Origin: Casimicrobiaceae bacterium
GTDB taxonomy: Bacteria; Pseudomonadota; Gammaproteobacteria; Burkholderiales; Casimicrobiaceae
Assembly (NCBI GenBank): GCA_044223185.1
Contig: JBGAMF010000007.1
Coordinates: 686-64,685, forward strand
Direction of reading: 5' to 3'
Length of the DNA: 64,000 nucleotides
Positions 53,087 to 64,000 of the stretch are shown here, one piece after another. The first letter of the stretch is position 1. Each line of letters starts with the position of its first letter. The position numbers were made by a program, and so were the translations under genes. Below the pieces are notes generated by a model. The model saw nothing but the letters and a program-made list of their open reading frames with translations. It made no database searches and was not told where the DNA came from.

Positions 53087-53176
53087 GCCTGACGGAATGG
53101 CTGACCGGCGGGCCGCGCCAGTGCGGACCAACGTCGAGCCGCATGCCGGCGCGTCCGCTCGAGTGCACGGGCGGGC
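53087..53176 (-). repeat. Degenerate attC (core GTCAGGC, inverse core eroded)
   Basis: GCCTGAC-ggaat-ggctgaccgg...ccgctcgagt-gcacg-GGCGGGC; arm layout like 63511-63591. Confidence 0.55.
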
Positions 53177-53213
53177 CGAAACGCATCGTCCGGCTCGACT
53201 CGATGCAGCACGC

Positions 53214-53316
53214 TCAGTCGGGAAACAGGACTTCGAAGAGCGCCCTGGCCTTTGGCGACAGGTTCCTGGGGTCCGGACGAAGCAGATCGTCGTCGGGCAC
53301 CAATCGGAACCCGGCG
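53214..53316 (-). pseudogene. 3' remnant of an unidentified gene (...AGFRLVPDDDLLRPDPRNLSPKARALFEVLFPD*)
   Basis: Protein-like C-terminus with no start, between the YciI stop and a degenerate attC. Confidence 0.35.
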
Positions 53317-53658
53317 TCAGGACTCCGGATCGTACTGGAACACGCGCAGCTCCTGGTCGCAGCGGCAGGCCTTCGCGATGCGAGCGGCCCATTCGACTGC
53401 CTCCTTGCGCGAGGGAAGTTCGAGCACGGCGAATCCGCCGTCGAGAGGAGCGGCCCACGGATATCCGCCCTCGGCGACTGCGCCATCACCCGAGACGAGT
53501 GCGGGACGAACGGTCTCGTCGATGCCGCCTGCGAAGACATAGACGCCGGCGGCCTTCGCCTCGCCGATCACCGCGTGCGCGTCGCGGCCCACCGTCTCCC
53601 ACTCGCCGTCGGGCACCGCCATCGCCGCGCTTGGAAACGAGATCAGGTACTTGGCCAT
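53317..53658 (-). CDS. YciI/DGPF family protein
   Basis: AAGGAG SD; MAKYLI, AGVYVFAGG, GGFAVLELPSR.EA.EWAA. Confidence 0.85.
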   Translation of the reverse strand: MAKYLISFPSAAMAVPDGEWETVGRDAHAVIGEAKAAGVYVFAGGIDETVRPALVSGDGAVAEGGYPWAAPLDGGFAVLELPSRKEAVEWAARIAKACRCDQELRVFQYDPES

Positions 53659-53693
53659 GCGATTCTCCTTCGGCGAGTAAAGTCGCGGGCCTC

Positions 53694-53795
53694 GGCGAAC
53701 GGTTCCTGCCGGCCGGCGAGCCGGGGAAGGCGGCGGCCCGCCGCGAGCGAAAACCGCGGCTGCAGTGCAGCGTCCGCTTGCGTGGATCGTCAGAC
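53694..53795 (-). repeat. Degenerate attC (inverse core GTCTGAC holding the upstream TGA; core GTTCGCC)
   Basis: Minus strand GTCTGAC-gatcc-acgcaagcggacg...gccggccggcaggaacc-GTTCGCC. Confidence 0.45.
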
Positions 53796-54287
53796 CGTCG
53801 TCCGGCCACGAACCGCCGCCTCGATCACCGCGACGTCGATCTTCTTCATCGTCATCATTGCATCGAAGGCACGCTTGGCTGCGGAGCGATCCGGACCGGT
53901 ATACGCTTTGGTCAACGCGATTGGCGTGATCTGCCAGGAGATGCCCCACTTGTCTTTGCACCAGCCGCATTCGCTCTCCTGGCCGCCGTTGGAGACGATC
54001 GCGTTCCAGTAGCGATCCGTTTCGGCCTGATCCTCGGTGGCGACCTGGAACGAGAACGCTTCGCTGTGCTTGAACGCAGGCCCGCCGTTCAGCCCGAGAC
54101 AGCGAACACCCATCACGGTGAACTCTACCGTCAGCACGTCCCCCAGCCTGCCCGACGGAAAGTCGCCGGGGGCGCGATGAACCGCGCCGAGGGACGAATC
54201 GGGAAAGGTGTCGGCGTAGAACTGCGCAGCTTCCTCGGCATCGCGTTCGTACCAGAGGCAAATCGTATTCTTTGCAATCCTCGTCAT
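53790..54287 (-). CDS. PhnB-like VOC family protein (3-demethylubiquinone-9 3-methyltransferase domain)
   Basis: ICLWY...AEEAA.FY, GLNGGP.F..SEAFSF, CGWCKDKWGISWQI. Confidence 0.9.
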   Translation of the reverse strand: MTRIAKNTICLWYERDAEEAAQFYADTFPDSSLGAVHRAPGDFPSGRLGDVLTVEFTVMGVRCLGLNGGPAFKHSEAFSFQVATEDQAETDRYWNAIVSNGGQESECGWCKDKWGISWQITPIALTKAYTGPDRSAAKRAFDAMMTMKKIDVAVIEAAVRGRTTV

Positions 54288-54485
54288 GCCGCTCTCCCAT
54301 CGAGATCGGAGCGAGCGCCTGCGCCGCTCCCGGATGAAGTCGCCGTGGGTTCCCAGGACCTGGCTGGCAGGTCAGGAGTCCGGGCTTCCCGGAGGTCCGA
54401 CATCCTGCCAGCCAGGTTGGGCATGTTCGGTCGCCGACATTCTCTCCTGACACGCCGGACATCTCGGTAGCGCCACCGTCCTTCC

Positions 54486-54564
54486 GCCAAACGCCCAAAC
54501 TCAGCCGTGGCGCCAGCTTCGCGCAAGCAGATCTGGTGAGGTCGGCTGGAGTGCGTCGTTGGGC
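54486..54564 (-). repeat. attC site
   Basis: GCCAAAC...actcagccg / cggctgGagt (extrahelical G)...GTTGGGC; 79 bp. Confidence 0.8.
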
Positions 54565-54604
54565 GGCATCCGTGAAGAGTCCGCCATCCTCTGAACGAGC
54601 GCGA

Positions 54605-55066
54605 CTACGCCTCGTTGTAGGCTCTCTCGAGCTCGGCCACGTCGAGCTTCACCATCGTCATCATGGCTTCCATCACGGCCTTCACCTTCCTGGGGTTCCT
54701 ATCACGGATCAGCTCGGTGAATCGTCGGGGGACGATTTGCCAGGAAAGACCGAACGGGTCCTTGATCCAACCGCATTGCGTGGGCTTCGCTCCTGCCTTC
54801 ACGAGCTTTTCCCAGTACTCATCCACTTCATCCTGATCCGCGCAGTCCACGTAGAGCGAAACCCCCTCGGAGAAGCTGAAGTACGGACCTCCGTTGTAGC
54901 CCATGAAGCGTTGACCGCCGACGACGAACTCGGCGGAACTGACAGGACCGTCCCTGCCCGTGCGGGCGACGTTGCGTACTTCGGAGTCGGGAAACGTCGC
55001 GGTGTAGAACTCGATGGCCGCTTCGAGCTGGTCGTTGAACATGAGGAAGGGCGTCACCTTGTTCAT
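54605..55066 (-). CDS. PhnB-like VOC family protein
   Basis: KVTPFLMF, YNGGPYF, CGWIKDPFGLSWQIVP; start re-called to ATG 55066. Confidence 0.9.
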   Translation of the reverse strand: MNKVTPFLMFNDQLEAAIEFYTATFPDSEVRNVARTGRDGPVSSAEFVVGGQRFMGYNGGPYFSFSEGVSLYVDCADQDEVDEYWEKLVKAGAKPTQCGWIKDPFGLSWQIVPRRFTELIRDRNPRKVKAVMEAMMTMVKLDVAELERAYNEA

Positions 55067-55102
55067 GGGAATGTCTTCTCCGTGAGTGCGATGCTCTTCT
55101 CC

Positions 55103-55159
55103 GCCCAACGTAGAGTTCGGCGGCGGCCGGCGGCCGTCCGTTGCAACGGCCTGTTGGGC
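55103..55159 (-). repeat. attC site (short, 57 bp)
   Basis: GCCCAAC-gtaga-gttcggcgg...ccgttGcaac-ggcct-GTTGGGC. Confidence 0.9.
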
Positions 55160-55232
55160 AGCTTCTTCACTCGTGCCTTGCCACGGCCGGGTGGTGTCCC
55201 GATTGCGGTGGAAACGGCGGCGCGGCCTTCGG

Positions 55233-55400
55233 TCATTGAATGACGTGATCCGCCCGCAGCAGCACCGACTGCGGGAGGGTGAGGCCCAGGGCCTTCGCGG
55301 TCTTCATGTTGATCACGAGTTCGAATTCGGTCGGCAGCTCGGCGGGCTTTGCCCCCTTGAGGATCTTGTCCACATAGGTGGCGTCCCGCCGGAAGAGTTC
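55233..55400 (-). pseudogene. 3' fragment of COG2984-like substrate-binding protein (copy 3)
   Basis: [55 protein letters not shown]; no 5' part; lacks the usual VEQP. Confidence 0.85.
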
Positions 55401-55559
55401 GACAAAGCTCGGTGCCGGTGACCGTCCCCGCCGACTCCTGGGCCAGGATGCCGACGATCTGCTCATCTGAAAACTTGCTCTTGCGCATGGGCTCCTCCGG
55501 TGGTCAATATACCCGGCAGAGCGTCACCTACCTTGGCCTGGAATTCGGGCGGAAAGTCA
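55400..55559 (-). mobile_element. Truncated IS3-family element (left end plus 30 codons of OrfA)
   Basis: TG-initiated end at 55559; [37 protein letters not shown] then abrupt junction. Confidence 0.8.
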
Positions 55560-55720
55560 AACCCGATCCGCTGCCGCCAGCCACCAGGCGGAAGAGCGGG
55601 ACCGGTGCCGCCTCCTCGGTGCGCAGCGAGCCTTGCATCCAGGAAGACCCCGGCCATTCGCGCAATGCCGCCGGCCAGCGGTGCCGGGAACAGCGCGGCG
55701 ACAATGCGCGATCGCATCAC

Positions 55721-55789
55721 GCCCACCGTTCGAGGAAACGCGGGACCAGCATTGGGACGCCTGGCCCGCCGCTGGGCCTCGTGTTGGCC
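55721..55789 (-). repeat. Possible heavily degenerate attC
   Basis: Minus strand GGCCAAC 14 nt after a stop, cagcggcgggcc arm, GTGGGC end; poor pairing. Confidence 0.3.
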
Positions 55790-55802
55790 GAGGGGTAGGG
55801 AT

Positions 55803-56315
55803 TCACTGCCTGCCAACAGCAGCAGGCTGCCTTTTGGCCACTGCTTGATCCGAGCGCAGGAAGAAGTCCGCAGGCGAGCGGAGCCATTCCCTCTTCTGGT
55901 TATCCCAGTGCGCGCGTTGCCAGCCATTGGGCTCTACGAGGGTCGAGGCCCAGGACGGGACCTCTTCTCCCGGTGCTTGTCCAAGCCCCGCCAAAAAGCA
56001 AACTTCCTCGCCGGTCCGGGTCCTGACGCGTCTTGTTCCAAAGGTGAAAGGCGACTCCAGACCGCTGAAGTCGCGCGCGGTTGTTCCACCGTAGACCTTG
56101 CGGCTTCCCGCAAGGCAGACCACATGGCTGCGTAGACAGGCCAGGAAAGCCTTACACAAGCCCTTCATGGGCTCGTCACTGCAGCCTTTGTTTCCCGTTA
56201 GATTGGGGATGACCAAACCACCGGCCGTCTCCGCAGCCTCGCAGGTGTTCGCATCGGCGGGACTGCAGGTCAGCGCGACAGCGGTGAACGCTGCGATGGC
56301 AATTGACAGGTTCAT
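55803..56315 (-). CDS. Hypothetical secreted Cys-containing protein (cassette)
   Basis: Starts 7 nt after a core site; signal peptide; several Cys; no family recognised. Confidence 0.6.
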   Translation of the reverse strand: MNLSIAIAAFTAVALTCSPADANTCEAAETAGGLVIPNLTGNKGCSDEPMKGLCKAFLACLRSHVVCLAGSRKVYGGTTARDFSGLESPFTFGTRRVRTRTGEEVCFLAGLGQAPGEEVPSWASTLVEPNGWQRAHWDNQKREWLRSPADFFLRSDQAVAKRQPAAVGRQ

Positions 56316-56321
56316 TGCGAG

Positions 56322-56405
56322 GCCTGACGGACAAAGCCAATCGGCCGCGAGCGGACGGCGCGCCAGCGCCGCCGGCGGGCGGTCCGGTTGAGCGAGGGTT
56401 CAGGC
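56322..56405 (-). repeat. attC-like site with GAC/GTC variant R boxes
   Basis: GCCTGAC-ggaca-aagccaatcgg-ccgc...gcggT-ccggttGagc-gagg-GTTCAGGC; both extrahelical bases present. Confidence 0.7.
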
Positions 56406-56427
56406 CGCAAGCAATGCCGCGAGGCGC

Positions 56428-56880
56428 TCATCGGATGAGGCGTGCACGCGCTTGAAGGACTTGCGGAATCGTGAGCCCGAGCGACTTCGCGGTCGCCATG
56501 TTTATGGAGAGCTCGAACCCGGTGGCCTGCTGGATCGGCAGATCACCGGGTTCGCCCCCTTCAGCAACTTGTCCACCAACGCGCCAGCGCGTCGATACCC
56601 TTCGAGCCGGTACGGGCCGTAGCCGATCACGCCGCCGGCGTCGGCGTACTCGTTGATCGCGGACGCCGAAACCAATCGATGCTTCAATGTCGACTCGGCG
56701 ACGGCTCGGGCGTTTACGGCGAACATGGTATCGCCTTGCACGAGCGCGGTATCGCACCGCGCTCTCTCAGCCTTGTCAAGGAAACCGGCGAGCTCAGCCG
56801 GCGTCCGCGCCTCGAACATCGACAGACGATTCTTGAACCACGCCGCCGTAGACTGCATCGCCGGCGTGCTTGTCGTGTGA
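56428..56880 (-). pseudogene. 3' half of COG2984-like substrate-binding protein (copy 4), frameshifted near 56549
   Basis: EYADAGGVIGYGP...VDKLLKGANP / GDLPIQQATGFELSINMATAKSLG in two frames; no start. Confidence 0.8.
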
Positions 56881-56910
56881 TCCGCAGGATTGGCAAGGTA
56901 CGCTACGCGC

Positions 56911-56917
56911 GTTAGGC
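56911..56917 (-). repeat. Isolated inverse core (GCCTAAC) of a truncated attC
   Basis: GTTAGGC on + strand, 7 nt beyond the dehydrogenase stop; no matching arm. Confidence 0.5.
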
Positions 56918-56924
56918 GTCAACA

Positions 56925-57872
56925 TCAATGTTGCTCGACGAAGCGCGGAACACTGTCACCGCTCAGATGTTTCAACAGTACATCGGCGACAGCGTCGGCA
57001 AAGTCCTCGTACTTCTTGTCGGTGGGCCAACCCAAATGCGGCGTGAGAATGACGTTTGGCAACGTCAACAAAGGATGACCGCGCGGTAGCGGCTCGCAGT
57101 CGAATACATCGAGACCGGCGCCTGCAATTCGACCGTCCGCCAGCACCGAAACCAGCGCAGCTTCATCAACGATCGGCCCACGAGCGGTGTTGATCAAACA
57201 GGCGGTAGGTTTCATGAGCCGAAGCCGCCGAGCGTCAAGCAACCCTCGCGTCTCGGGTGCGAGCGTCGCGTGCACTGAAACGACATCCGATTCCCGCATC
57301 AGATGATCCAGATCGCACCACTCTGCACCCAGCGACGCCGCGGCGCCATCGTCGCGACGACGGCTCCAGGCGAGGACTCGCATGTCGAAGGCTCGTGCGA
57401 TCTTCGCGACATGCATACCAACGTGCCCGAGTCCGATGACGCCAAGCGTCTTGCCATTGAGCTCGTGACCCAACGGGGCAGGCCAATGTCCGGACTTCAC
57501 GGCAGCGTCAGCCGCCGGTATGTGTCGCAGCAACGCAATGGTGAGGCCGATGGCCAATTCCGCCGCACCGGTGGAGAAGCCACCGCTCGCCTTTGCCACA
57601 ATCACCCCGCGCTCCCGGGCGGCCGCCAAATCGACGTGGTAAGCGTGGTTCCCGGTCTGCGCGAGAATCCGGAGATCGGGCAATCGCTCGAAGAGCGCCC
57701 GAGTGAATTTTGTGCGTTCGCGGTTCGCTACGAGGGCATCGAATCCACGCAATGCCGCTGCATCGCCAAATGGACCGACGAATATCCGAACCTCGGCTCG
57801 CTCCCTCAGCCGTCGGACGGCCTCGGTACGCTCATACGCCTGGTGGATATCATCAAGAATGGCGACATGCAC
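56925..57872 (-). CDS. D-2-hydroxyacid dehydrogenase family protein (cassette)
   Basis: GGAGG SD and GTG; VAILDD, GVIGLGHVG, LINTARG, LDVF..EP, TPHLG. Confidence 0.92.
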   Translation of the reverse strand: MHVAILDDIHQAYERTEAVRRLRERAEVRIFVGPFGDAAALRGFDALVANRERTKFTRALFERLPDLRILAQTGNHAYHVDLAAARERGVIVAKASGGFSTGAAELAIGLTIALLRHIPAADAAVKSGHWPAPLGHELNGKTLGVIGLGHVGMHVAKIARAFDMRVLAWSRRRDDGAAASLGAEWCDLDHLMRESDVVSVHATLAPETRGLLDARRLRLMKPTACLINTARGPIVDEAALVSVLADGRIAGAGLDVFDCEPLPRGHPLLTLPNVILTPHLGWPTDKKYEDFADAVADVLLKHLSGDSVPRFVEQH

Positions 57873-57889
57873 CTGCTGCCTCCATTGAC

Positions 57890-57979
57890 GCCTGACGAAA
57901 AAGGCGAGCGGCGCGCCGCCGCGGCGCCCGCCAAGTAGAAGCTGCGTACCGACGCGTCCGCTCGACCGCAGGATCAGGC
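57890..57979 (-). repeat. attC-like site with GAC/GTC variant R boxes
   Basis: GCCTGAC-gaaaa-aggcgagcgg-cgcg...cgcgT-ccgctcgAcc-gcagg-ATCAGGC; holds the hicB TGA. Confidence 0.75.
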
Positions 57980-58185
57980 CGGTACGTCGACGCACCGAAC
58001 CGAGCCAGTTGGCGCGGGAATGGGGGTACCATCTTCGCGCATGCCCTCAAGGTGAACTCGATAGCGTCGCGGATCTCCCGCTCGACTTCCTCGACGGTCG
58101 CGCCTGTAGCAACGCAGCCGGGAAGATCAGGAACGTCTGCCGAGTAGTTGGGCCCGGCGCTTTCGATCACGATCGCGTAGCGCAT
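57974..58185 (-). pseudogene. hicB: HicB antitoxin, frameshifted near 58053
   Basis: MRYAIVIE...YSADVPDLPGCVATG.T..E....I..AIEF / HLEGMREDGTPIP.P in two frames. Confidence 0.88.
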
Positions 58186-58195
58186 CTGGTTCCCC

Positions 58196-58383
58196 TCACC
58201 TCGTCGCGCCCGCCTGCTCTCGAATGCTATCGAGTGTCCCAGGAGCGCGTTCGTCGCTTGGCTTGCCAGGAACAGTGACTCGCCGGGTTTCGGCGGATGC
58301 TTGAACCGACGATGACTTCCGCGAGTGGCGACCAGGAACCACCTCTCGTCAGCAAGCAGCGGGAGCATCTCGCCCACCTTAAC
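58196..58383 (-). pseudogene. hicA: HicA mRNA interferase, frameshifted near 58281, start codon degraded
   Basis: W.LVATRGSHR.FKHP.KPG / RVTVPGKPSDE.APGTL.SI in two frames. Confidence 0.88.
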
Positions 58384-58426
58384 GCGCGGGATTATGCGCT
58401 CTCGGCCACGAGCTTCTCAACCTGAG

Positions 58427-58445
58427 GCCAAACGGGATTCAGGCC
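58427..58445 (-). repeat. Collapsed attC (both R boxes, central stem deleted)
   Basis: Minus strand GCCTGAA-tccc-GTTTGGC containing the SMI1/KNR4 stop. Confidence 0.5.
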
Positions 58446-59059
58446 TCAGTGCGGACAGCGTTGCCACGGTTGTCCTTTAGTTCGTTGATCCACCATTGGC
58501 GATTCTCGTCAGGGGTCACAAACCTCATGTGGCTCGCGATTGCAGTTAGTCGCGAAGTGTCCAGGTCCAGATTTCTCTTGACGAAGTCCGGCAAGCTCTG
58601 ACCCAACTCGACGAACTCGAATCCATCGTGTTCGAACTCGAAGACCCTTCCCGTGTATGGCCCGGCAGCAGGTACCAGGAGATAGTTGCCGCTTCGCGGA
58701 ATCTCTCCAACTACCAGGCAGTTCTTGATCCAGTCCGGCAGATAGTCTTCTTCCTCGTCCTCTTCGATACATTCCAGCCATGGCCTGAAACAACTATCCA
58801 GCTCGGGCCACTGTGAAGGACTTGCAATGAAGAAAGCGGCGTCTCCGCTCTCCTCCTCAAAATAGAGTGTGAGCTGCGCAAACGTGTCGTAGAAGTCCCG
58901 AAGTCCTTGAACGTCGGGCACGTCAACACTGGGGTCCGGTGGAAATGCAGCGTGACGGAAGCTCACGGCCTTGGTGTTCTTCTCGCTATGAATCTCACTG
59001 CAGATGAACTGCCCGACGTGTGACTGCACTTCGGAGCGTAGTGATTCGAGTGTGGGCAT
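58439..59059 (-). CDS. SMI1/KNR4 (SUKH) family immunity-like protein (cassette)
   Basis: L.DFY, VGEIP.SGNYLL, G.VFEFEHDG, SL.DFV; acidic. Confidence 0.7.
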   Translation of the reverse strand: MPTLESLRSEVQSHVGQFICSEIHSEKNTKAVSFRHAAFPPDPSVDVPDVQGLRDFYDTFAQLTLYFEEESGDAAFFIASPSQWPELDSCFRPWLECIEEDEEEDYLPDWIKNCLVVGEIPRSGNYLLVPAAGPYTGRVFEFEHDGFEFVELGQSLPDFVKRNLDLDTSRLTAIASHMRFVTPDENRQWWINELKDNRGNAVRTEA

Positions 59060-59092
59060 TGATCTTCCGAGGCGACGAACGGTGATTCGGAG

Positions 59093-59170
59093 GCCTAACG
59101 TTCGAGTTCACTCGCAGCCGGAAGCAGGCGAAGCCTGCTGGAGGCTGTCGGGTGCAACGACGGGTTAGCC
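59093..59170 (-). repeat. attC site
   Basis: GCCTAAC-gttcg-agttcactcg-cagcc...ggctgT-cgggtGcaac-gacgg-GTTAGCC; 78 bp. Confidence 0.95.
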
Positions 59171-59179
59171 CGCACGCTG

Positions 59180-59389
59180 CTACTTCCAGGCGAGGTTGAG
59201 CTTCTTACCAGATGCTGCGCACTCCTTGAGATAGAGGTTGATCAGACTCTGGTAAGGGATGCCGGTCTCGGCCGACATGGACTTGAAGTACGTGATTGAC
59301 TGTTCGTCAAGCCGAATGGTCACCGGCTTCTTAAGTTGCGACGCGTACGGGTTCTTTCGGGAAGCGCTGAAGTCATACTGCTTGCGCAT
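59180..59389 (-). CDS. brnA: BrnA/CopG-like antitoxin
   Basis: MRKQYDFS..RKNPY, KKPVTIRLD, GIPYQSLINLYL. Confidence 0.9.
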   Translation of the reverse strand: MRKQYDFSASRKNPYASQLKKPVTIRLDEQSITYFKSMSAETGIPYQSLINLYLKECAASGKKLNLAWK

Positions 59390-59397
59390 GGTGTCAC

Positions 59398-59676
59398 CTA
59401 TCGGTAGAAGCCCTGTTCCTCGCGCGTGGCCTTGCGCGCGGAGATGATACGGATGATGCCTCCTGCTTCACGATAGCAGTGCGCTACGACCAGTAGGCGC
59501 AAGCTGCTGCTGAGGCCAAGGAGAAGAAAGCGCTCTTCGTCTACCGAGTGGTCCGGATCATCGATCAGGCGGGCGCGCTCATCGGCAAACACGGACTCCG
59601 CGTCCTCGAACGACACGCCGTGCTTGCGGAAATTGGCCGCCGCCTTGCGAGGGTCCCACTCAAAGCGCAGGCTCAT
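59398..59676 (-). CDS. brnT: BrnT toxin
   Basis: FEWDPRKA..N.RKHGVSFE.A, D.DHS..E.RF, IRIISARKAT. Confidence 0.93.
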   Translation of the reverse strand: MSLRFEWDPRKAAANFRKHGVSFEDAESVFADERARLIDDPDHSVDEERFLLLGLSSSLRLLVVAHCYREAGGIIRIISARKATREEQGFYR

Positions 59677-59712
59677 GCCGACATTGTATGTACAACGTAC
59701 GTATACCGCAAC
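59677..59712 (-). promoter_or_regulatory. Cassette-borne brnTA promoter/operator
   Basis: TACAAT -10 just before the ATG; ttgta-tg-tacaa inverted repeat. Confidence 0.55.
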
Positions 59713-59728
59713 CCGGGGCCTTCGTGCG

Positions 59729-59815
59729 GGCTAACGCTACCAGCTAACCGGCGCGTGCCAGCGGCCGCCGAAGGACGGCCGCGGGACACGCGTGCGGTTG
59801 AGCGCCGGGTTAGGC
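59729..59815 (-). repeat. attC site
   Basis: GGCTAAC...agctaaccgg / gcggttGagc...GTTAGGC; holds the higA TAA; 87 bp. Confidence 0.95.
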
Positions 59816-60070
59816 CGCAGATTCAAGGGGCACTTCCCAACCTGGAAACACCAGCACGGCTGGGTGACACTTGAGCGCCCGGGCAAGTGCCTTTGCGCGT
59901 TCAACACCCAGATTCACTCGGCCGTTCTCGATTGCGGAAATGGTGGCCTGCGAGATTCCCGTCAGATCAGCGAGTTGGCTCTGGCTCAGTTCCTGAAGCT
60001 CGCGCAGGATCCGCACAGACTCACCAGGAGTGACATCGATACGATTCTTGGCAGGACGAAATGATTTCAT
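59810..60070 (-). CDS. higA: HigA-like XRE HTH antitoxin
   Basis: LSQSQLADLTGISQATISAIENG HTH. Confidence 0.85.
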   Translation of the reverse strand: MKSFRPAKNRIDVTPGESVRILRELQELSQSQLADLTGISQATISAIENGRVNLGVERAKALARALKCHPAVLVFPGWEVPLESAA

Positions 60071-60071
60071 A

Positions 60072-60356
60072 TCAAGGCTTTCGATAATCGTGCGGAGTTA
60101 CGTGAATCACTTGAATCAATAGCACTTCAGCAGAGACGCGATAGATCACGCGCCACTGCAAGCCAAGTCGAGATGAACGATGACCCTTCCATTCACCCGA
60201 CAGGGCCTCGTCGTGGAATCCCTTAATCATTCTCAGCCCGGGAGGTCCCGAGAGTCTGGCAACGTCCTTCCACTTTTCGTACCGCTTCAGAATCTCGATG
60301 GGGACCGCGCCAGCAAGTTGCTTGTCGACGCGACGATGCTCTTCGATCCGCCACAT
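60072..60356 (-). CDS. higB: HigB/RelE-superfamily mRNA interferase
   Basis: GFHDEALSGEWKGHRSSRL..QWRVIY; toxin-first order. Confidence 0.85.
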   Translation of the reverse strand: MWRIEEHRRVDKQLAGAVPIEILKRYEKWKDVARLSGPPGLRMIKGFHDEALSGEWKGHRSSRLGLQWRVIYRVSAEVLLIQVIHVTPHDYRKP

Positions 60357-60359
60357 GCC

Positions 60360-60391
60360 ATATTATGTATATATCTAATATGGCATGTCAA
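60360..60391 (-). promoter_or_regulatory. Cassette-borne higBA sigma70 promoter with operator
   Basis: TTGACA-N18-CATAAT on minus strand; ATATTA-N10-TAATAT inverted repeat over it. Confidence 0.7.
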
Positions 60392-60419
60392 GCTCGCGGC
60401 GCGGCTCCAGTGCCGTTCG

Positions 60420-60510
60420 GCCTAACGTTCAAGTTAACCGGCGCCCGGCCACCAGCGGTCGGAAACAAGAAACCATGTGCCCGGGCGTCCGGTTGAACGC
60501 AGAGTTAGGC
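60420..60510 (-). repeat. attC site
   Basis: GCCTAAC-gttca-agttaaccgg-cgcccgg...ccgggcgT-ccggttGaac-gcaga-GTTAGGC; 91 bp. Confidence 0.96.
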
Positions 60511-60527
60511 CTGAAATGGGGAGCCAA

Positions 60528-61580
60528 TCAAGCTCCACCACCAAGGATTTTGATATAGCTCTGCTCTTTATCTCGAAGGTCCCATGTTGCCTGGATATGT
60601 CGCGTTAACTCCGGCAAATCGGTTTCAATCGTAGTCCGCCAGAGATGTGCTTTGTACTCAAAGACACGCAACATGTTGTCCACATCAAATACGCGACCCG
60701 TTCCCGTAGCCTTGATGATCGAAACCGGCCTATTCGTCATCATGCGAATGCCTAGCTCGAACAGCACATTAGGATTGTGTTCCGTCAAGTCGCATATGAC
60801 GAGATCAGCCTCCAACAACTCCTTGATGATGGTCGATTGGATCAGGTCGCTGCCTTGTCGGTTTGCCGTTCTTACTTGGAAACCTGCTTCGACTGCCGCC
60901 GGTGTGATAAGGCTTCGGAGCACTTCGGTGAAGAACCCGCTAGCATGTGTTGCTTCTCGTTCTACAAACGGCATGATCACAAAAGCTACAAGATTTGATG
61001 CTGTCTTCGGTTCGCCTACCACAACCGTGGTCTTGGTCTCGGCGGCCCTTTGCGGCGGCGAGCCAGGAGCATCACCGGCCTTGATTCCAAGATACTCGGA
61101 ATTGGCTCGAAAGAGCTTTGAAAATTCTTCGTGCTGCTCGGGCAGGAGTCCAAACTCTCTCTCCAGCGTGTTACCGAGATACTTCATTTCTGGCAGATCA
61201 CTGCCCTTGTAGTGATCGAACACTCGACGAAAGATGTCGACCCCCAGGAATGCTTCCGTTTTCTTTTCTAGCTCAGCTGCCGGGTCCGGAGCGTAAACAA
61301 TCGCTCTGCCCAGATCGGTGAGCTCCACCTTCGGGGTATTTCGAGTGCCGATCGTCAGTCCGAAGTCACGGGAAGCGGCGGTCGTGTAGTAAAACTTGTT
61401 GGTCTTGTGGCTCATGCTCAAGGCTGCGGCTAGATCCTCCACAGCCCATGGATTGCCACCATTCTTCTCCTTGATCGCGACTGGGACTTCTAGCGCTATC
61501 TCAAGAGGCAGGGTCGGAAAGGTGACCTTCGGCTTTTCCGCCTTCGGTGCAGTCTTTTTCGTACCTTTCTTCGCCGCCAC
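60528..61580 (-). CDS. Winged-helix plus nucleoside 2-deoxyribosyltransferase-like (NDT) two-domain protein (cassette)
   Basis: N-terminal FP...LE.AL, FGLT.G, VELT.LG.AI; C-terminal AFVIMPF, ADLVICDLTEHNPNVLFELG. Confidence 0.7.
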   Translation of the reverse strand: MAAKKGTKKTAPKAEKPKVTFPTLPLEIALEVPVAIKEKNGGNPWAVEDLAAALSMSHKTNKFYYTTAASRDFGLTIGTRNTPKVELTDLGRAIVYAPDPAAELEKKTEAFLGVDIFRRVFDHYKGSDLPEMKYLGNTLEREFGLLPEQHEEFSKLFRANSEYLGIKAGDAPGSPPQRAAETKTTVVVGEPKTASNLVAFVIMPFVEREATHASGFFTEVLRSLITPAAVEAGFQVRTANRQGSDLIQSTIIKELLEADLVICDLTEHNPNVLFELGIRMMTNRPVSIIKATGTGRVFDVDNMLRVFEYKAHLWRTTIETDLPELTRHIQATWDLRDKEQSYIKILGGGA

Positions 61581-61604
61581 AATTTTCTCCCTCTGAATAT
61601 TCGA

Positions 61605-61629
61605 ATCTAACGTTGGACTTCACCCGGTC
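61605..61629 (-). repeat. Half attC (core GTTAGAT plus one L arm); other half deleted at the upstream stop codon
   Basis: ATCTAAC-gttgg-acttcacccgg parallels the matching arms at 59093, 60420 and 63005, then runs straight into TGA 61630. Confidence 0.7.
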
Positions 61630-62976
61630 TCACCAGCGCACTTTCCACATTCCGCCTCCGGTGCAGGTGCCGCAATGCTGCAAACTCTTCCAGTCGTTGC
61701 GCCCCGTGACCTTCTCAAGCCCCTTTCTTGCCTTGTCGGCTTTCGCCGATCCTTGCCAAGACGTGTGACCACAGTCTGCGACCTCGACTAAGACATCGTA
61801 TGCGCCCTTGCTATGGGTTTTCTTGTAGAAGCGCACCTCACCCGACCCGGGGTCGGTGGACTCTGAAACGGTGGTGGTTTCGTCCGGGTCTTGGATCTCT
61901 GGCGCCTTCAGCTGGCTAAGTGCGTGTTCAGCCATGTCAGCACGAGCCGCAGTTCGAGCGAGTTCGCTCTGTAGTTGCTCCACTGTGTTCTTGAGATCCT
62001 GGTTCTCATTGATGTACAGACGAGCAATTGCGAGTTCTTCAGAGTTGGGCGCTGCGCGCGCCTCAAGTTCCTCAATCCGACCGCGCGCAACGGCATCCCG
62101 GACTTCTCGAATTCCAACGGGCGGGGTAATTGAGAGCGCAGCCGTCGACATCAGCATTCTGCGCAATGTGGATCTGAGACGATTGAGACCTTTCCCGTCG
62201 CGGTCATTGGACAGGAGCACAGATGCGGTCCAGACGGTACTATTGAAGGTTCCGTCTGGCCTGTTGCGAGGGGGCCAATAGAGGCGGACCGCGCCGCGAT
62301 AACACGAATGCAGTTTCCCGACCTCATCAGACAGGGTCCAGGTTGCATCGTCATCAATCGAGATCACATGGGCAAGACCTGCGAGGTCGAAAGCAAGTTC
62401 TTCTGCGAGCCTGGGCCAGAGTTGTTCACCCTCGATCTGTGACACGACCACGATGGGTAGGCTGCGGTTCCCGCTCCGAATCTCATTGGCAAGTTCCTTA
62501 CCGCCCGTCTCACCAGCGAGGGAGCGTGGCGTAGTTCCACCTATTGTAGTGCCGTTGAGAGTCCAGTCGGCGAACTGATCCAGCAGGGTCCGGACAATCG
62601 ACGGGCACCGCGGGTCGTTCGGCAGCGGAGCAACAATACTGGCAGAGTTCGCAACGCTCAGCGTGCAGTAGATTCTGAGTCGCCCGGCGACCGCCACCGC
62701 TGAGATATGTGTCGTGAAGATCTGACCGGCCCGCGTGAACTCCTCGAGTCGAACTTCGTGAAGGGCGCCGAGATGGACTATCTGCTCCTCGCGGGAGAAA
62801 ACTCCACTCCCATCCTTCGTCAGAGACTCGAACTCACCCGCGTTGAGCGAAGGATCGGCTGCCCCCTTACTTTGGAGCCAGGTAGACATGTTGTGGCGAA
62901 CGGCATCCAATCGACCCTGAAGCTCAGCGTCGGAGAATGTCGGGGATTCGAGAAGGTATGCCGAAAGCACTTGCAT
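61630..62976 (-). CDS. Hypothetical 448-aa protein with coiled coil and C-terminal Cys/His cluster (cassette)
   Basis: Begins 28 nt after the core at 63005; LPIVVVS, LAGLAHV, CYRGAVRLYWP; DCGH...HCGTC. Confidence 0.85.
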   Translation of the reverse strand: MQVLSAYLLESPTFSDAELQGRLDAVRHNMSTWLQSKGAADPSLNAGEFESLTKDGSGVFSREEQIVHLGALHEVRLEEFTRAGQIFTTHISAVAVAGRLRIYCTLSVANSASIVAPLPNDPRCPSIVRTLLDQFADWTLNGTTIGGTTPRSLAGETGGKELANEIRSGNRSLPIVVVSQIEGEQLWPRLAEELAFDLAGLAHVISIDDDATWTLSDEVGKLHSCYRGAVRLYWPPRNRPDGTFNSTVWTASVLLSNDRDGKGLNRLRSTLRRMLMSTAALSITPPVGIREVRDAVARGRIEELEARAAPNSEELAIARLYINENQDLKNTVEQLQSELARTAARADMAEHALSQLKAPEIQDPDETTTVSESTDPGSGEVRFYKKTHSKGAYDVLVEVADCGHTSWQGSAKADKARKGLEKVTGRNDWKSLQHCGTCTGGGMWKVRW

Positions 62977-63004
62977 AGTGGCAGGGAGGCTTTAGGTGCG
63001 TCGG

Positions 63005-63073
63005 GCCTAACGTTTGACATGAGGGGCTTGACCCGGCTTGCCGGGGCAAGTCCCCTCGATGGAAGGGTTAGGC
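63005..63073 (-). repeat. attC site
   Basis: GCCTAAC-gtttg-acatgagggg-cttg...caagT-cccctcGatg-gaagg-GTTAGGC; holds the upstream TAA; 69 bp. Confidence 0.96.
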
Positions 63074-63487
63074 CGCACTGTGATGGCCCAACTGCTTAAG
63101 CCCGGCTAGGTTGTCCCACTCCGCCCAAGCCTCGACGATGCGCTCGTTCTCGATGCGATAGATGGCCAGATACGCAGCGTCAAGCACTCGCCCAGAGGCA
63201 GGGTAGGGCCCCATTGAACCGAGCTGGGTTCCTCGAAACTGATGCCTGGCGGCGACTTTGTCATCTTCTGCCACGAGGTCCAAGAGCGTTTCGCGTGCGT
63301 CTGGGAACGTAGCGAACTCCATCTTAAGAAATGCAACCAACGCCTCGGCGGACTGAACGCTCGATTCGCCTGCGGCGACGCTGTGCCTGACGAAACGCTC
63401 ACCGATGAGGCCACGGAGCCGAGGCCAGTCTTGCTCGTTGATTGCCTCAACGAAAGCGCTGACTAGAGCTTTGTTCTTCTCGGACAT
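63068..63487 (-). CDS. SnoaL-like ester cyclase family protein (cassette)
   Basis: NKALV..FVEAIN, FPD, LVAEDDKVAAR..F.GT..G, YRIEN.RIVE.W. Confidence 0.88.
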   Translation of the reverse strand: MSEKNKALVSAFVEAINEQDWPRLRGLIGERFVRHSVAAGESSVQSAEALVAFLKMEFATFPDARETLLDLVAEDDKVAARHQFRGTQLGSMGPYPASGRVLDAAYLAIYRIENERIVEAWAEWDNLAGLKQLGHHSAA

Positions 63488-63510
63488 AGTGAGGTGTTGG
63501 TTCTTGTGCG

Positions 63511-63591
63511 GGCTAACGAAAAAGGTGACCGGCGCGCGAAAGGCGGGCGAAGCCACGCCGAGGCGCGTCCGCGTTGACCGCCGGGTTAGGT
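63511..63591 (-). repeat. attC site
   Basis: GGCTAAC-gaaaa-aggtgaccgg-cgcgc...gcgcgT-ccgcgttgacc-gccgg-GTTAGGT; 81 bp. Confidence 0.9.
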
Positions 63592-63601
63592 TGCATAGGC
63601 G

Positions 63602-63871
63602 CTACCGCGACTTGCTAAGCCGCTCGGCCATTCGGGTCTGCCAGCCTGGGCCGGTAGCTTTCCAGCGCTCGATGACGTCGACCGGCAGGCGGATGGAGAT
63701 GAGCTTGCGCGGATTCGCCGACAGCGGACGTCCGCCCTTGTTCACGACGGCGCGAGCCAAAGCCTGCTCCGTCAAAGCCGGCAACTCCGTGTACTCGTGC
63801 GCCCGTATCGAGTGAGCATCGACCTTGGTGAGGTCAGATTTCAAAGAACGGCGCGAGGCGGTCTTTCTCAC
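63602..63871 (-). CDS. brnA: BrnA antitoxin (DUF4415 type)
   Basis: GGRP....RKLISIRLP.DVIE.WKATG.GWQTRM. Confidence 0.92.
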   Translation of the reverse strand: MRKTASRRSLKSDLTKVDAHSIRAHEYTELPALTEQALARAVVNKGGRPLSANPRKLISIRLPVDVIERWKATGPGWQTRMAERLSKSR

Positions 63872-64000
63872 GTTGGTTGGCCTTTCGCATGCTGAAAATG
63901 TGGCGAGCGTTTCCTCTCGGCGTGTAGCCGACGACGACTAGGCGGCCGCCAAGCATGCCGTAGCAGATGATGCGCGGCTCGCCATAGTTCCTGCGCAGGT
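63834..64000 (-). CDS. brnT: BrnT toxin, 5' part outside window
   Basis: Manual translation LRRNYGEPRIICYGMLGGRLVVVGYTPRGNARHIFSMRKANQRE...*. Confidence 0.88.
   Translation of the reverse strand, partial: LRRNYGEPRIICYGMLGGRLVVVGYTPRGNARHIFSMRKANQREKDRLAPFFEI

Follow-up and report, generated by a model that had tools for sequence, protein, structure and literature searches.

The stretch of DNA analyzed here, referred to as the window, comprises 64,000 nucleotides of contig JBGAMF010000007.1 of a Casimicrobiaceae bacterium (positions 686 to 64,685; G000:C53:686-64685 in our numbering), the assembly of which contains 4.18 Mb in 192 contigs with a GC content of 72%. Positions 53087-64000 of the window form the integrase-distal end of the cassette array of a chromosomal integron, with the cassette genes on the minus strand. 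Twelve attC recombination sites were recognized in this region, and several of them carry GAC or GTC in place of the AAC/GTT triplet, which is conserved better than the rest of attC (Cury et al., 2016; PMC4889954). We consider it likely that these GAC/GTC cores arose by GC-driven decay, the sites being genuine attC sites at the oldest end of a sedentary chromosomal integron, farthest from the integrase.

Cassette array and attC sites

The only integron integrase in the assembly is encoded on a separate 2.9-kb contig (C164). It scores 470 bits to TIGR02249 and 293 bits to VchIntIA, and keeps the lysine equivalent to K160/K171 (K160 in VchIntIA), which contacts T3 and A2'. Its closest named relatives, at 57-67% identity, come from a mixture of Betaproteobacteria and other bacteria. 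Other tyrosine recombinase matches in the assembly were weak only. Beside intI lie an attI site, which reads GTTAGAC on the strand of the cassettes, and, adjoining it, the beginning of a first cassette. The window contig terminates within an attC, and the orientation fits one integron whose middle part is unassembled; an intact integrase probably still stands at the opposite end of the array. The GC content is about 0.72 in the chromosome, 0.54-0.60 at 58-64 kb of the window and 0.63-0.68 at 52-58 kb, and the GC content at third codon positions of the cassette genes shows a modest gradient only (0.56-0.76 in the proximal vs. 0.66-0.78 in the distal part).

The attC sites are read on the plus strand, which is the recombining bottom strand of each site, as a left box (RYYYAAC), a body and a right box (GTTRRRY), the bulged G lying in the right arm. 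The left box is complementary to R', where cleavage occurs between A and C, and the right box to R''. The 12 sites are mutually alignable with a common consensus fold, lie directly downstream of cassette open reading frames (ORFs) in a co-oriented array, and are homologous to the attC family that adjoins integron integrases. By alignment and consensus fold, their L boxes, 5-nt central spacer and bulged bases are in register with the R boxes, more weakly so for sites 53087 and 58377 (Table 1). The five canonical sites occupy the lower-GC proximal part of the array, and 53087 is the most distal recognizable attC.

Table 1. Features of the distal cassette array, in window coordinates. G5, G at left-box position 5; C3, C at right-box position 3.
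Feature	Position	Strand	Left box	Right box	Remarks
attC	63511-63591	+	GGCTAAC	GTTAGGT	canonical, proximal
attC	63005-63073	+	GCCTAAC	GTTAGGC	canonical, proximal
attC	60420-60510	+	GCCTAAC	GTTAGGC	canonical, proximal
attC	59729-59815	+	GGCTAAC	GTTAGGC	canonical, proximal
attC	59093-59170	+	GCCTAAC	GTTAGCC	canonical, proximal
attC	58377-58444	+	CCTTAAC	TTCAGGC	C3 only; strongly degenerate; 28.8 bits
hicA and hicB toxin-antitoxin cassette	57974-58400	-			frameshift in each gene (pseudogenes)
attC	57890-57979	+	GCCTGAC	ATCAGGC (57973-57979)	G5 and C3
D-2-hydroxyacid dehydrogenase cassette gene	56925-57872	-			PF02826, 215 bits; between sites 57890 and 56322
Orphan right box	56911-56917	+		GTTAGGC	immediately after the dehydrogenase stop codon
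ABC_sub_bind (PF04392) C-terminal fragments	55233-55466 and 56428-56757				remnants of truncated cassettes
attC	56322-56405	+	GCCTGAC	TTCAGGC (56399-56405)	G5 and C3
attC	55103-55159	+	GCCCAAC	GTTGGGC	short; AAC/GTT retained
attC	54486-54564	+	GCCAAAC	GTTGGGC	AAC/GTT retained
attC	53694-53795	+	GGCGAAC	GTCAGAC	left box canonical; C3 only
attC	53087-53176	+	GCCTGAC	GGCGGGC (53170-53176)	G5 and C3; right box otherwise decayed

AAC is found in the left box of nine window sites and GTT in the right box of 7 of the 12. The remaining three, 53087, 56322 and 57890, read GAC on the left, and GGC, TTC and ATC, respectively, on the right. The initial annotation had reported a GTCAGGC core at these three sites and a further variant core at 53694. 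All four sites exist, and alignment to the canonical attC sites bears out both statements: GCCTGAC on the plus strand, which is GTCAGGC on the gene strand, stands exactly at the R' box of each of the three, and the change at 53694 is confined to the right box. The list of variants was short by one, since site 58377 also has a C3 right box, next to a canonical left box, so that C3 is present at five window sites, and all three G5 sites are among them. Likewise, a change of the opposite arm had been correctly described for 56322 and 57890, but it also affects 53087, and in 56322 and 57890 the first right-box G is lost as well (T and A, respectively), therefore leaving the crossover C without a partner. 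The L boxes and bulges, described as kept, are present by alignment, but two left-arm L-box changes in 56322 are uncompensated, and when 57890 and 53087 are folded with DNA parameters, their structure of lowest energy is not that of attC. A one-base-shifted reading of 56322, in which GTTCAGG would serve as a canonical GTT box, was rejected, as it would require two indels and disrupt the 5-nt spacer.

The variant sites are genuine attC sites. A covariance model built from the 12 window sites gave E values of 1e-12 to 1e-17 for 53087, 56322 and 57890, which belong to its training set, and found no further match above 20 bits in the window. A sequence profile made from the sites of relatives only scored the proximal sites at 21-53 bits, 57890 at 25 bits and 56322 at 23 bits, and missed the other five distal window sites, 53087 included. 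In folding with DNA parameters, four of the five proximal sites formed clean attC hairpins (z -3.3 to -7.3), and 56322 still folded as attC in the centroid structure (z -2.5). The folding of 57890, 53694 and 53087 was indistinct from that of shuffled sequence, and 53087 had no attC-like DNA fold (z 0.14). The frequency of the heptamer itself is unremarkable (21 GCCTRAC matches vs. 15.8 expected). In the rest of the assembly, the covariance model detected only two extra sites on the same contig and one solitary site on each of two other contigs. These solitary sites of the same family, C92:6868-6947 (44.6 bits) and C109:12939-13020 (37.5 bits), are already variant in the right or left box (TTTGGGC and GCCCAAA).

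Origin and distribution of the variant cores

The GAC/GTC state in the window is derived, because homologous cassettes and attC sites of the genus carry AAC on the left and mostly GTT on the right. At least four other genomes of the genus contain homologous hicAB cassettes that are intact and have canonical attC sites; in four of these the boxes read GCCTAAC/GTTAGGC, and the TAA that stops hicB lies within R''. Of the homologues of attC 56322, the closest four (84-89% identical) all have AAC in the left box; the right box is GTT in two, GTC in one and ATT in one. An orthologous array, sought for dating the changes, was found in none of 61 genomes of the genus, which contain only single homologous cassettes of 68-84% identity.

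The direction of change is GC-biased. Substitutions in hicAB were counted at positions where three homologues agree and the window differs, and likewise for each homologue. Weak-to-strong vs. strong-to-weak changes were 21:10 in the window copy and 6:14, 3:20 and 3:14 in the homologues (pooled 12:48; Fisher P 2e-5), and the GC content of the window copy is 65% vs. 60%.

The same changes recur in relatives. Of 101 genomes from this taxonomic family, 79 contained the attC family according to the model, and 786 sites were aligned from the arrays of 27 of these 79 genomes; some arrays are partial (20-kb stretches were taken), and the related genomes are not independent samples. None of the conclusions depends on the unpublished genome G058. 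AAC/GTT was present in 629 of the 786 sites (80%), G5 in 42 (5.3%), C3 in 38 (4.8%) and both in 8 (1%). G5 and C3 are the commonest variants, and they are clustered at distal array ends: in 17 arrays of at least 15 sites, G5 or C3 was found in 29 of 187 distal-third sites vs. 10 of 378 elsewhere (permutation p < 1e-4). In all five genomes checked (G031, G036, G066, G096 and G011), intI was located at the array end expected from site orientation. In G031, which has an intact intI, the variants lie mostly at the far end of the array. In G096, intI is broken by an internal deletion, and the variants are scattered along the whole array. The array of G036, next to an intact intI, contains a double variant. 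The array of G031, a member of the same genus, has at least 123 attC sites over about 87 kb beside intI (G031:C4:1555287-1642127), and several relatives have arrays of 40-66 attC sites; this GC-rich family seems to be rich in very large chromosomal integrons.

The choice of bases may be related to the stop codons of the cassette genes. In the family, 54% of sites have an open stretch of 60 codons or more in the frame that ends at the R'' TAA, vs. 17-24% in the other two frames, and this TAA appears to be the stop codon of roughly half of the family's cassette ORFs, which would constrain the evolution of R''. C3 converts this TAA to TGA. Among the right-box variants, GTC and GCT are the most frequent. 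They yield TGA and TAG, respectively, no other single change of this TAA would preserve a stop, and both are AT-to-GC transitions. By a crude count, TAA ends only about 7% of the long open frames in the genome of the window. In the window, the R'' TGA of site 58377 is the stop codon of ORF 58439-59059 and that of 53694 is the stop codon of ORF 53790-54287, while the R'' TGA of 57890 terminates the broken hicB frame.

The variant bases also appear to have arisen in place. At the informative positions 1 (103 vs. 31), 2 (67 vs. 19) and 4 (83 vs. 42), a left box agrees far more often with the right box of the neighboring site on the distal side than with that of its own site, as expected if the R' half travels with its cassette. 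The variant position 5 breaks this inheritance rule, which argues for a change after insertion of the cassette.

The genes of the distal zone are decaying together with its sites. An intact hicAB homologue (L085) matches the window in two frames for each of hicA and hicB. At the orphan right box, the rest of the site and the 5' portion of the following cassette gene have been deleted, and this box and the ABC_sub_bind fragments show deletions. The ABC_sub_bind segment around 55220-55420 matches many places in related genomes and looks like part of a repeated gene family. ORFs 53790-54287 and 54605-55108 are neighboring cassettes coding for paralogous PF06983 (3-dmu-9_3-mt, glyoxalase-like) proteins; homologues of the former, with 76-84% identity, are widespread in the genus as single genes.

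Relation between the two arm changes

In a plain 2 × 2 test on the first 672 sites of relatives, G5 and C3 were associated (odds ratio 8, p 0.001). A non-pairing control, which compared the left box of site n+1 with the right box of site n, gave an association that was at least as strong. When the right-box state was permuted among 3 to 10 neighboring sites, 7.6-9.3 doubles were expected in relatives vs. 8 observed, and 9.6-12.3 vs. 11 with the window included. For the window alone, this local shuffle gave p values of 0.05-1.0 that varied with block size; for the pooled data they were 0.3-0.9. Among the seven distal window sites, the hypergeometric P for all three G5 sites falling in C3 sites was 0.29. 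The apparent covariation of the arms, for which the initial annotation had proposed a statistical test, is gone under local shuffling, and, the control association being at least as strong, coupling of the arms is therefore not supported. A polarity of the variant runs (right-only proximal, left-only distal) was also rejected: 7 vs. 2 at first, it fell to 10 vs. 6 (p 0.4) after 114 sites of distal extensions were added. If true, such a polarity would have pointed to the insertion of canonical cassettes into compensated sites.

In the decay that we favor, distal cassettes would no longer be moved, and their genes and sites would erode together. AT-to-GC pressure in a 72% GC genome would change the two A:T pairs of the triplet by transitions. 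In R'', TAA to TGA would be the favored route because cassette genes often end at this TAA and a TGA in its place still terminates them, and AAC to GAC would be the commonest change on the R' side. Both changes would be frequent in decayed zones and would sometimes coincide in one site, restoring a G:C pair by chance; a coupling of the arms would be unnecessary for explaining the data. GC-biased drift with retention of the stop codon, one of the origins considered in the initial annotation, is supported by the derived state, the AT-to-GC excess in hicAB, the distal clustering in 17 arrays and the use of the R'' TAA as a stop.

Several observations weigh against this explanation. The weak-to-strong rate at conserved hicAB positions is only 17%, compared with C3 in five and G5 in three of the seven distal sites, so either the zone is much older than hicAB suggests or the triplet positions change faster than average. 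The intI contig is not physically joined to the window contig in the assembly. All three G5 sites of the window are also C3 sites, and perfectly compensated 7-bp GCCTGAC/GTCAGGC sites occur in two relatives, G066 and G011. By published IntI1 data, the latter could still recombine with a GTT site. Frumerie et al. (2010; PMC2811028) engineered the paired change (T3 to C, together with A to G in the complement) in attCaadA7 and VCRd, and the attC-GTC mutants recombined with wild-type attI1-GTT at the wild-type level. When attI1 was also GTC, recombination was 150-fold lower and in vitro cleavage was undetected (PMC2811028). These mutants were overlooked in the initial annotation, which offered drift or a new recombinase as the alternatives.

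The coincidence of G5 and C3 in the window, the perfect sites of relatives and the behavior of the engineered mutants would also fit selection for R-box pairing, in which the second change is fixed as it restores a hairpin still in use, giving working GTC-type attC sites able to recombine with GTT sites and only poorly with one another. Other paired differences from the family consensus in the stem of 57890 point the same way. However, the 34 G5-only and 30 C3-only sites of relatives far exceed the 8 doubles, which themselves are not above the expectation from local clustering. In addition, 56322 and 57890 have no G opposite the crossover C, the L-box changes of 56322 are uncompensated, the neighboring genes are pseudogenes, and the variant bases stand outside the cassette-inheritance rule. 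We therefore regard such selection as unlikely. Compensated GAC/GTC sites as a natural semi-locked state, recombining with canonical GTT sites and hardly with each other, seem rather improbable too. If true, a run of such sites would hold cassettes in place and yet leave them recoverable, a step in chromosomal domestication.

Hairpin-templated mutation appears quite improbable. Here, template switching during replication of an imperfect palindrome would copy one arm onto the other without selection. Quasi-palindrome correction is an established mutational mechanism, and the doubles of the window would fit it. However, doubles are no commoner than local clustering predicts, which also speaks against the hairpin-templated correction invoked in the initial annotation; other mismatches have been left uncorrected (T or A facing the crossover C, and the L-box changes of 56322), and about 70 nt separate the arms. 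A separate class of sites served by a recombinase with a different crossover preference, also raised there, is highly improbable: the recurrence of the same core at three sites is the only point for it, against a sole integron integrase that is canonical with its T3/A2' lysine retained, a GTT attI, weak matches only for other tyrosine recombinases, the sporadic occurrence of identical variants at distal array ends in many relatives, and variant bases that do not follow cassette inheritance.

Comparison with known integrons and significance

The array resembles those of sedentary chromosomal integrons such as that of the Vibrio cholerae repeats, in that an imperfect palindrome with R and L boxes, bulges and a variable center follows each gene, one attC sequence family extends along a long array, and the left box of site n is part of the next cassette, as confirmed here at the informative positions. 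Unlike the V. cholerae repeats, some distal window sites have GAC/GTC for AAC/GTT, and further defining positions are eroded. The attCaadA7-GTC and VCRd-GTC mutants carry the identical paired change. However, those were laboratory constructs in otherwise intact sites assayed with IntI1 (PMC2811028), whereas the window sites are natural, have extra defects and are known from sequence. The first base pair of the triplet must match that of the partner, or recombination drops a thousand-fold or more (PMC2811028), and because of this, the loss of the first right-box G in 56322 and 57890 should be more harmful than GTC itself. The variant sites would now be poor substrates, notably these two, in which the pairing G for the crossover C is lost.

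Eroded or lost attC sites are known to fix cassettes in place in fused or truncated cassettes and degenerate attC sites of class 1 and chromosomal integrons and in attC-site clusters without integron-integrases (CALIN) (PMC4889954). The window shares with such elements the orphan right box and the gene fragments. Unlike CALIN elements, decay in the window is a gradient within one array that probably has an intact integrase at its other end. The freezing of cassettes by GTC sites, as suggested in the initial annotation, is plausible.

Taken together, our results give no pointer to a new recombination specificity. They show how integron sites are lost in a GC-rich host: erosion starts with the most conserved triplet, at the far ends of arrays, through the two transitions that GC pressure and stop-codon retention would allow. 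This helps to annotate old cassette arrays and to judge which cassettes remain mobile.

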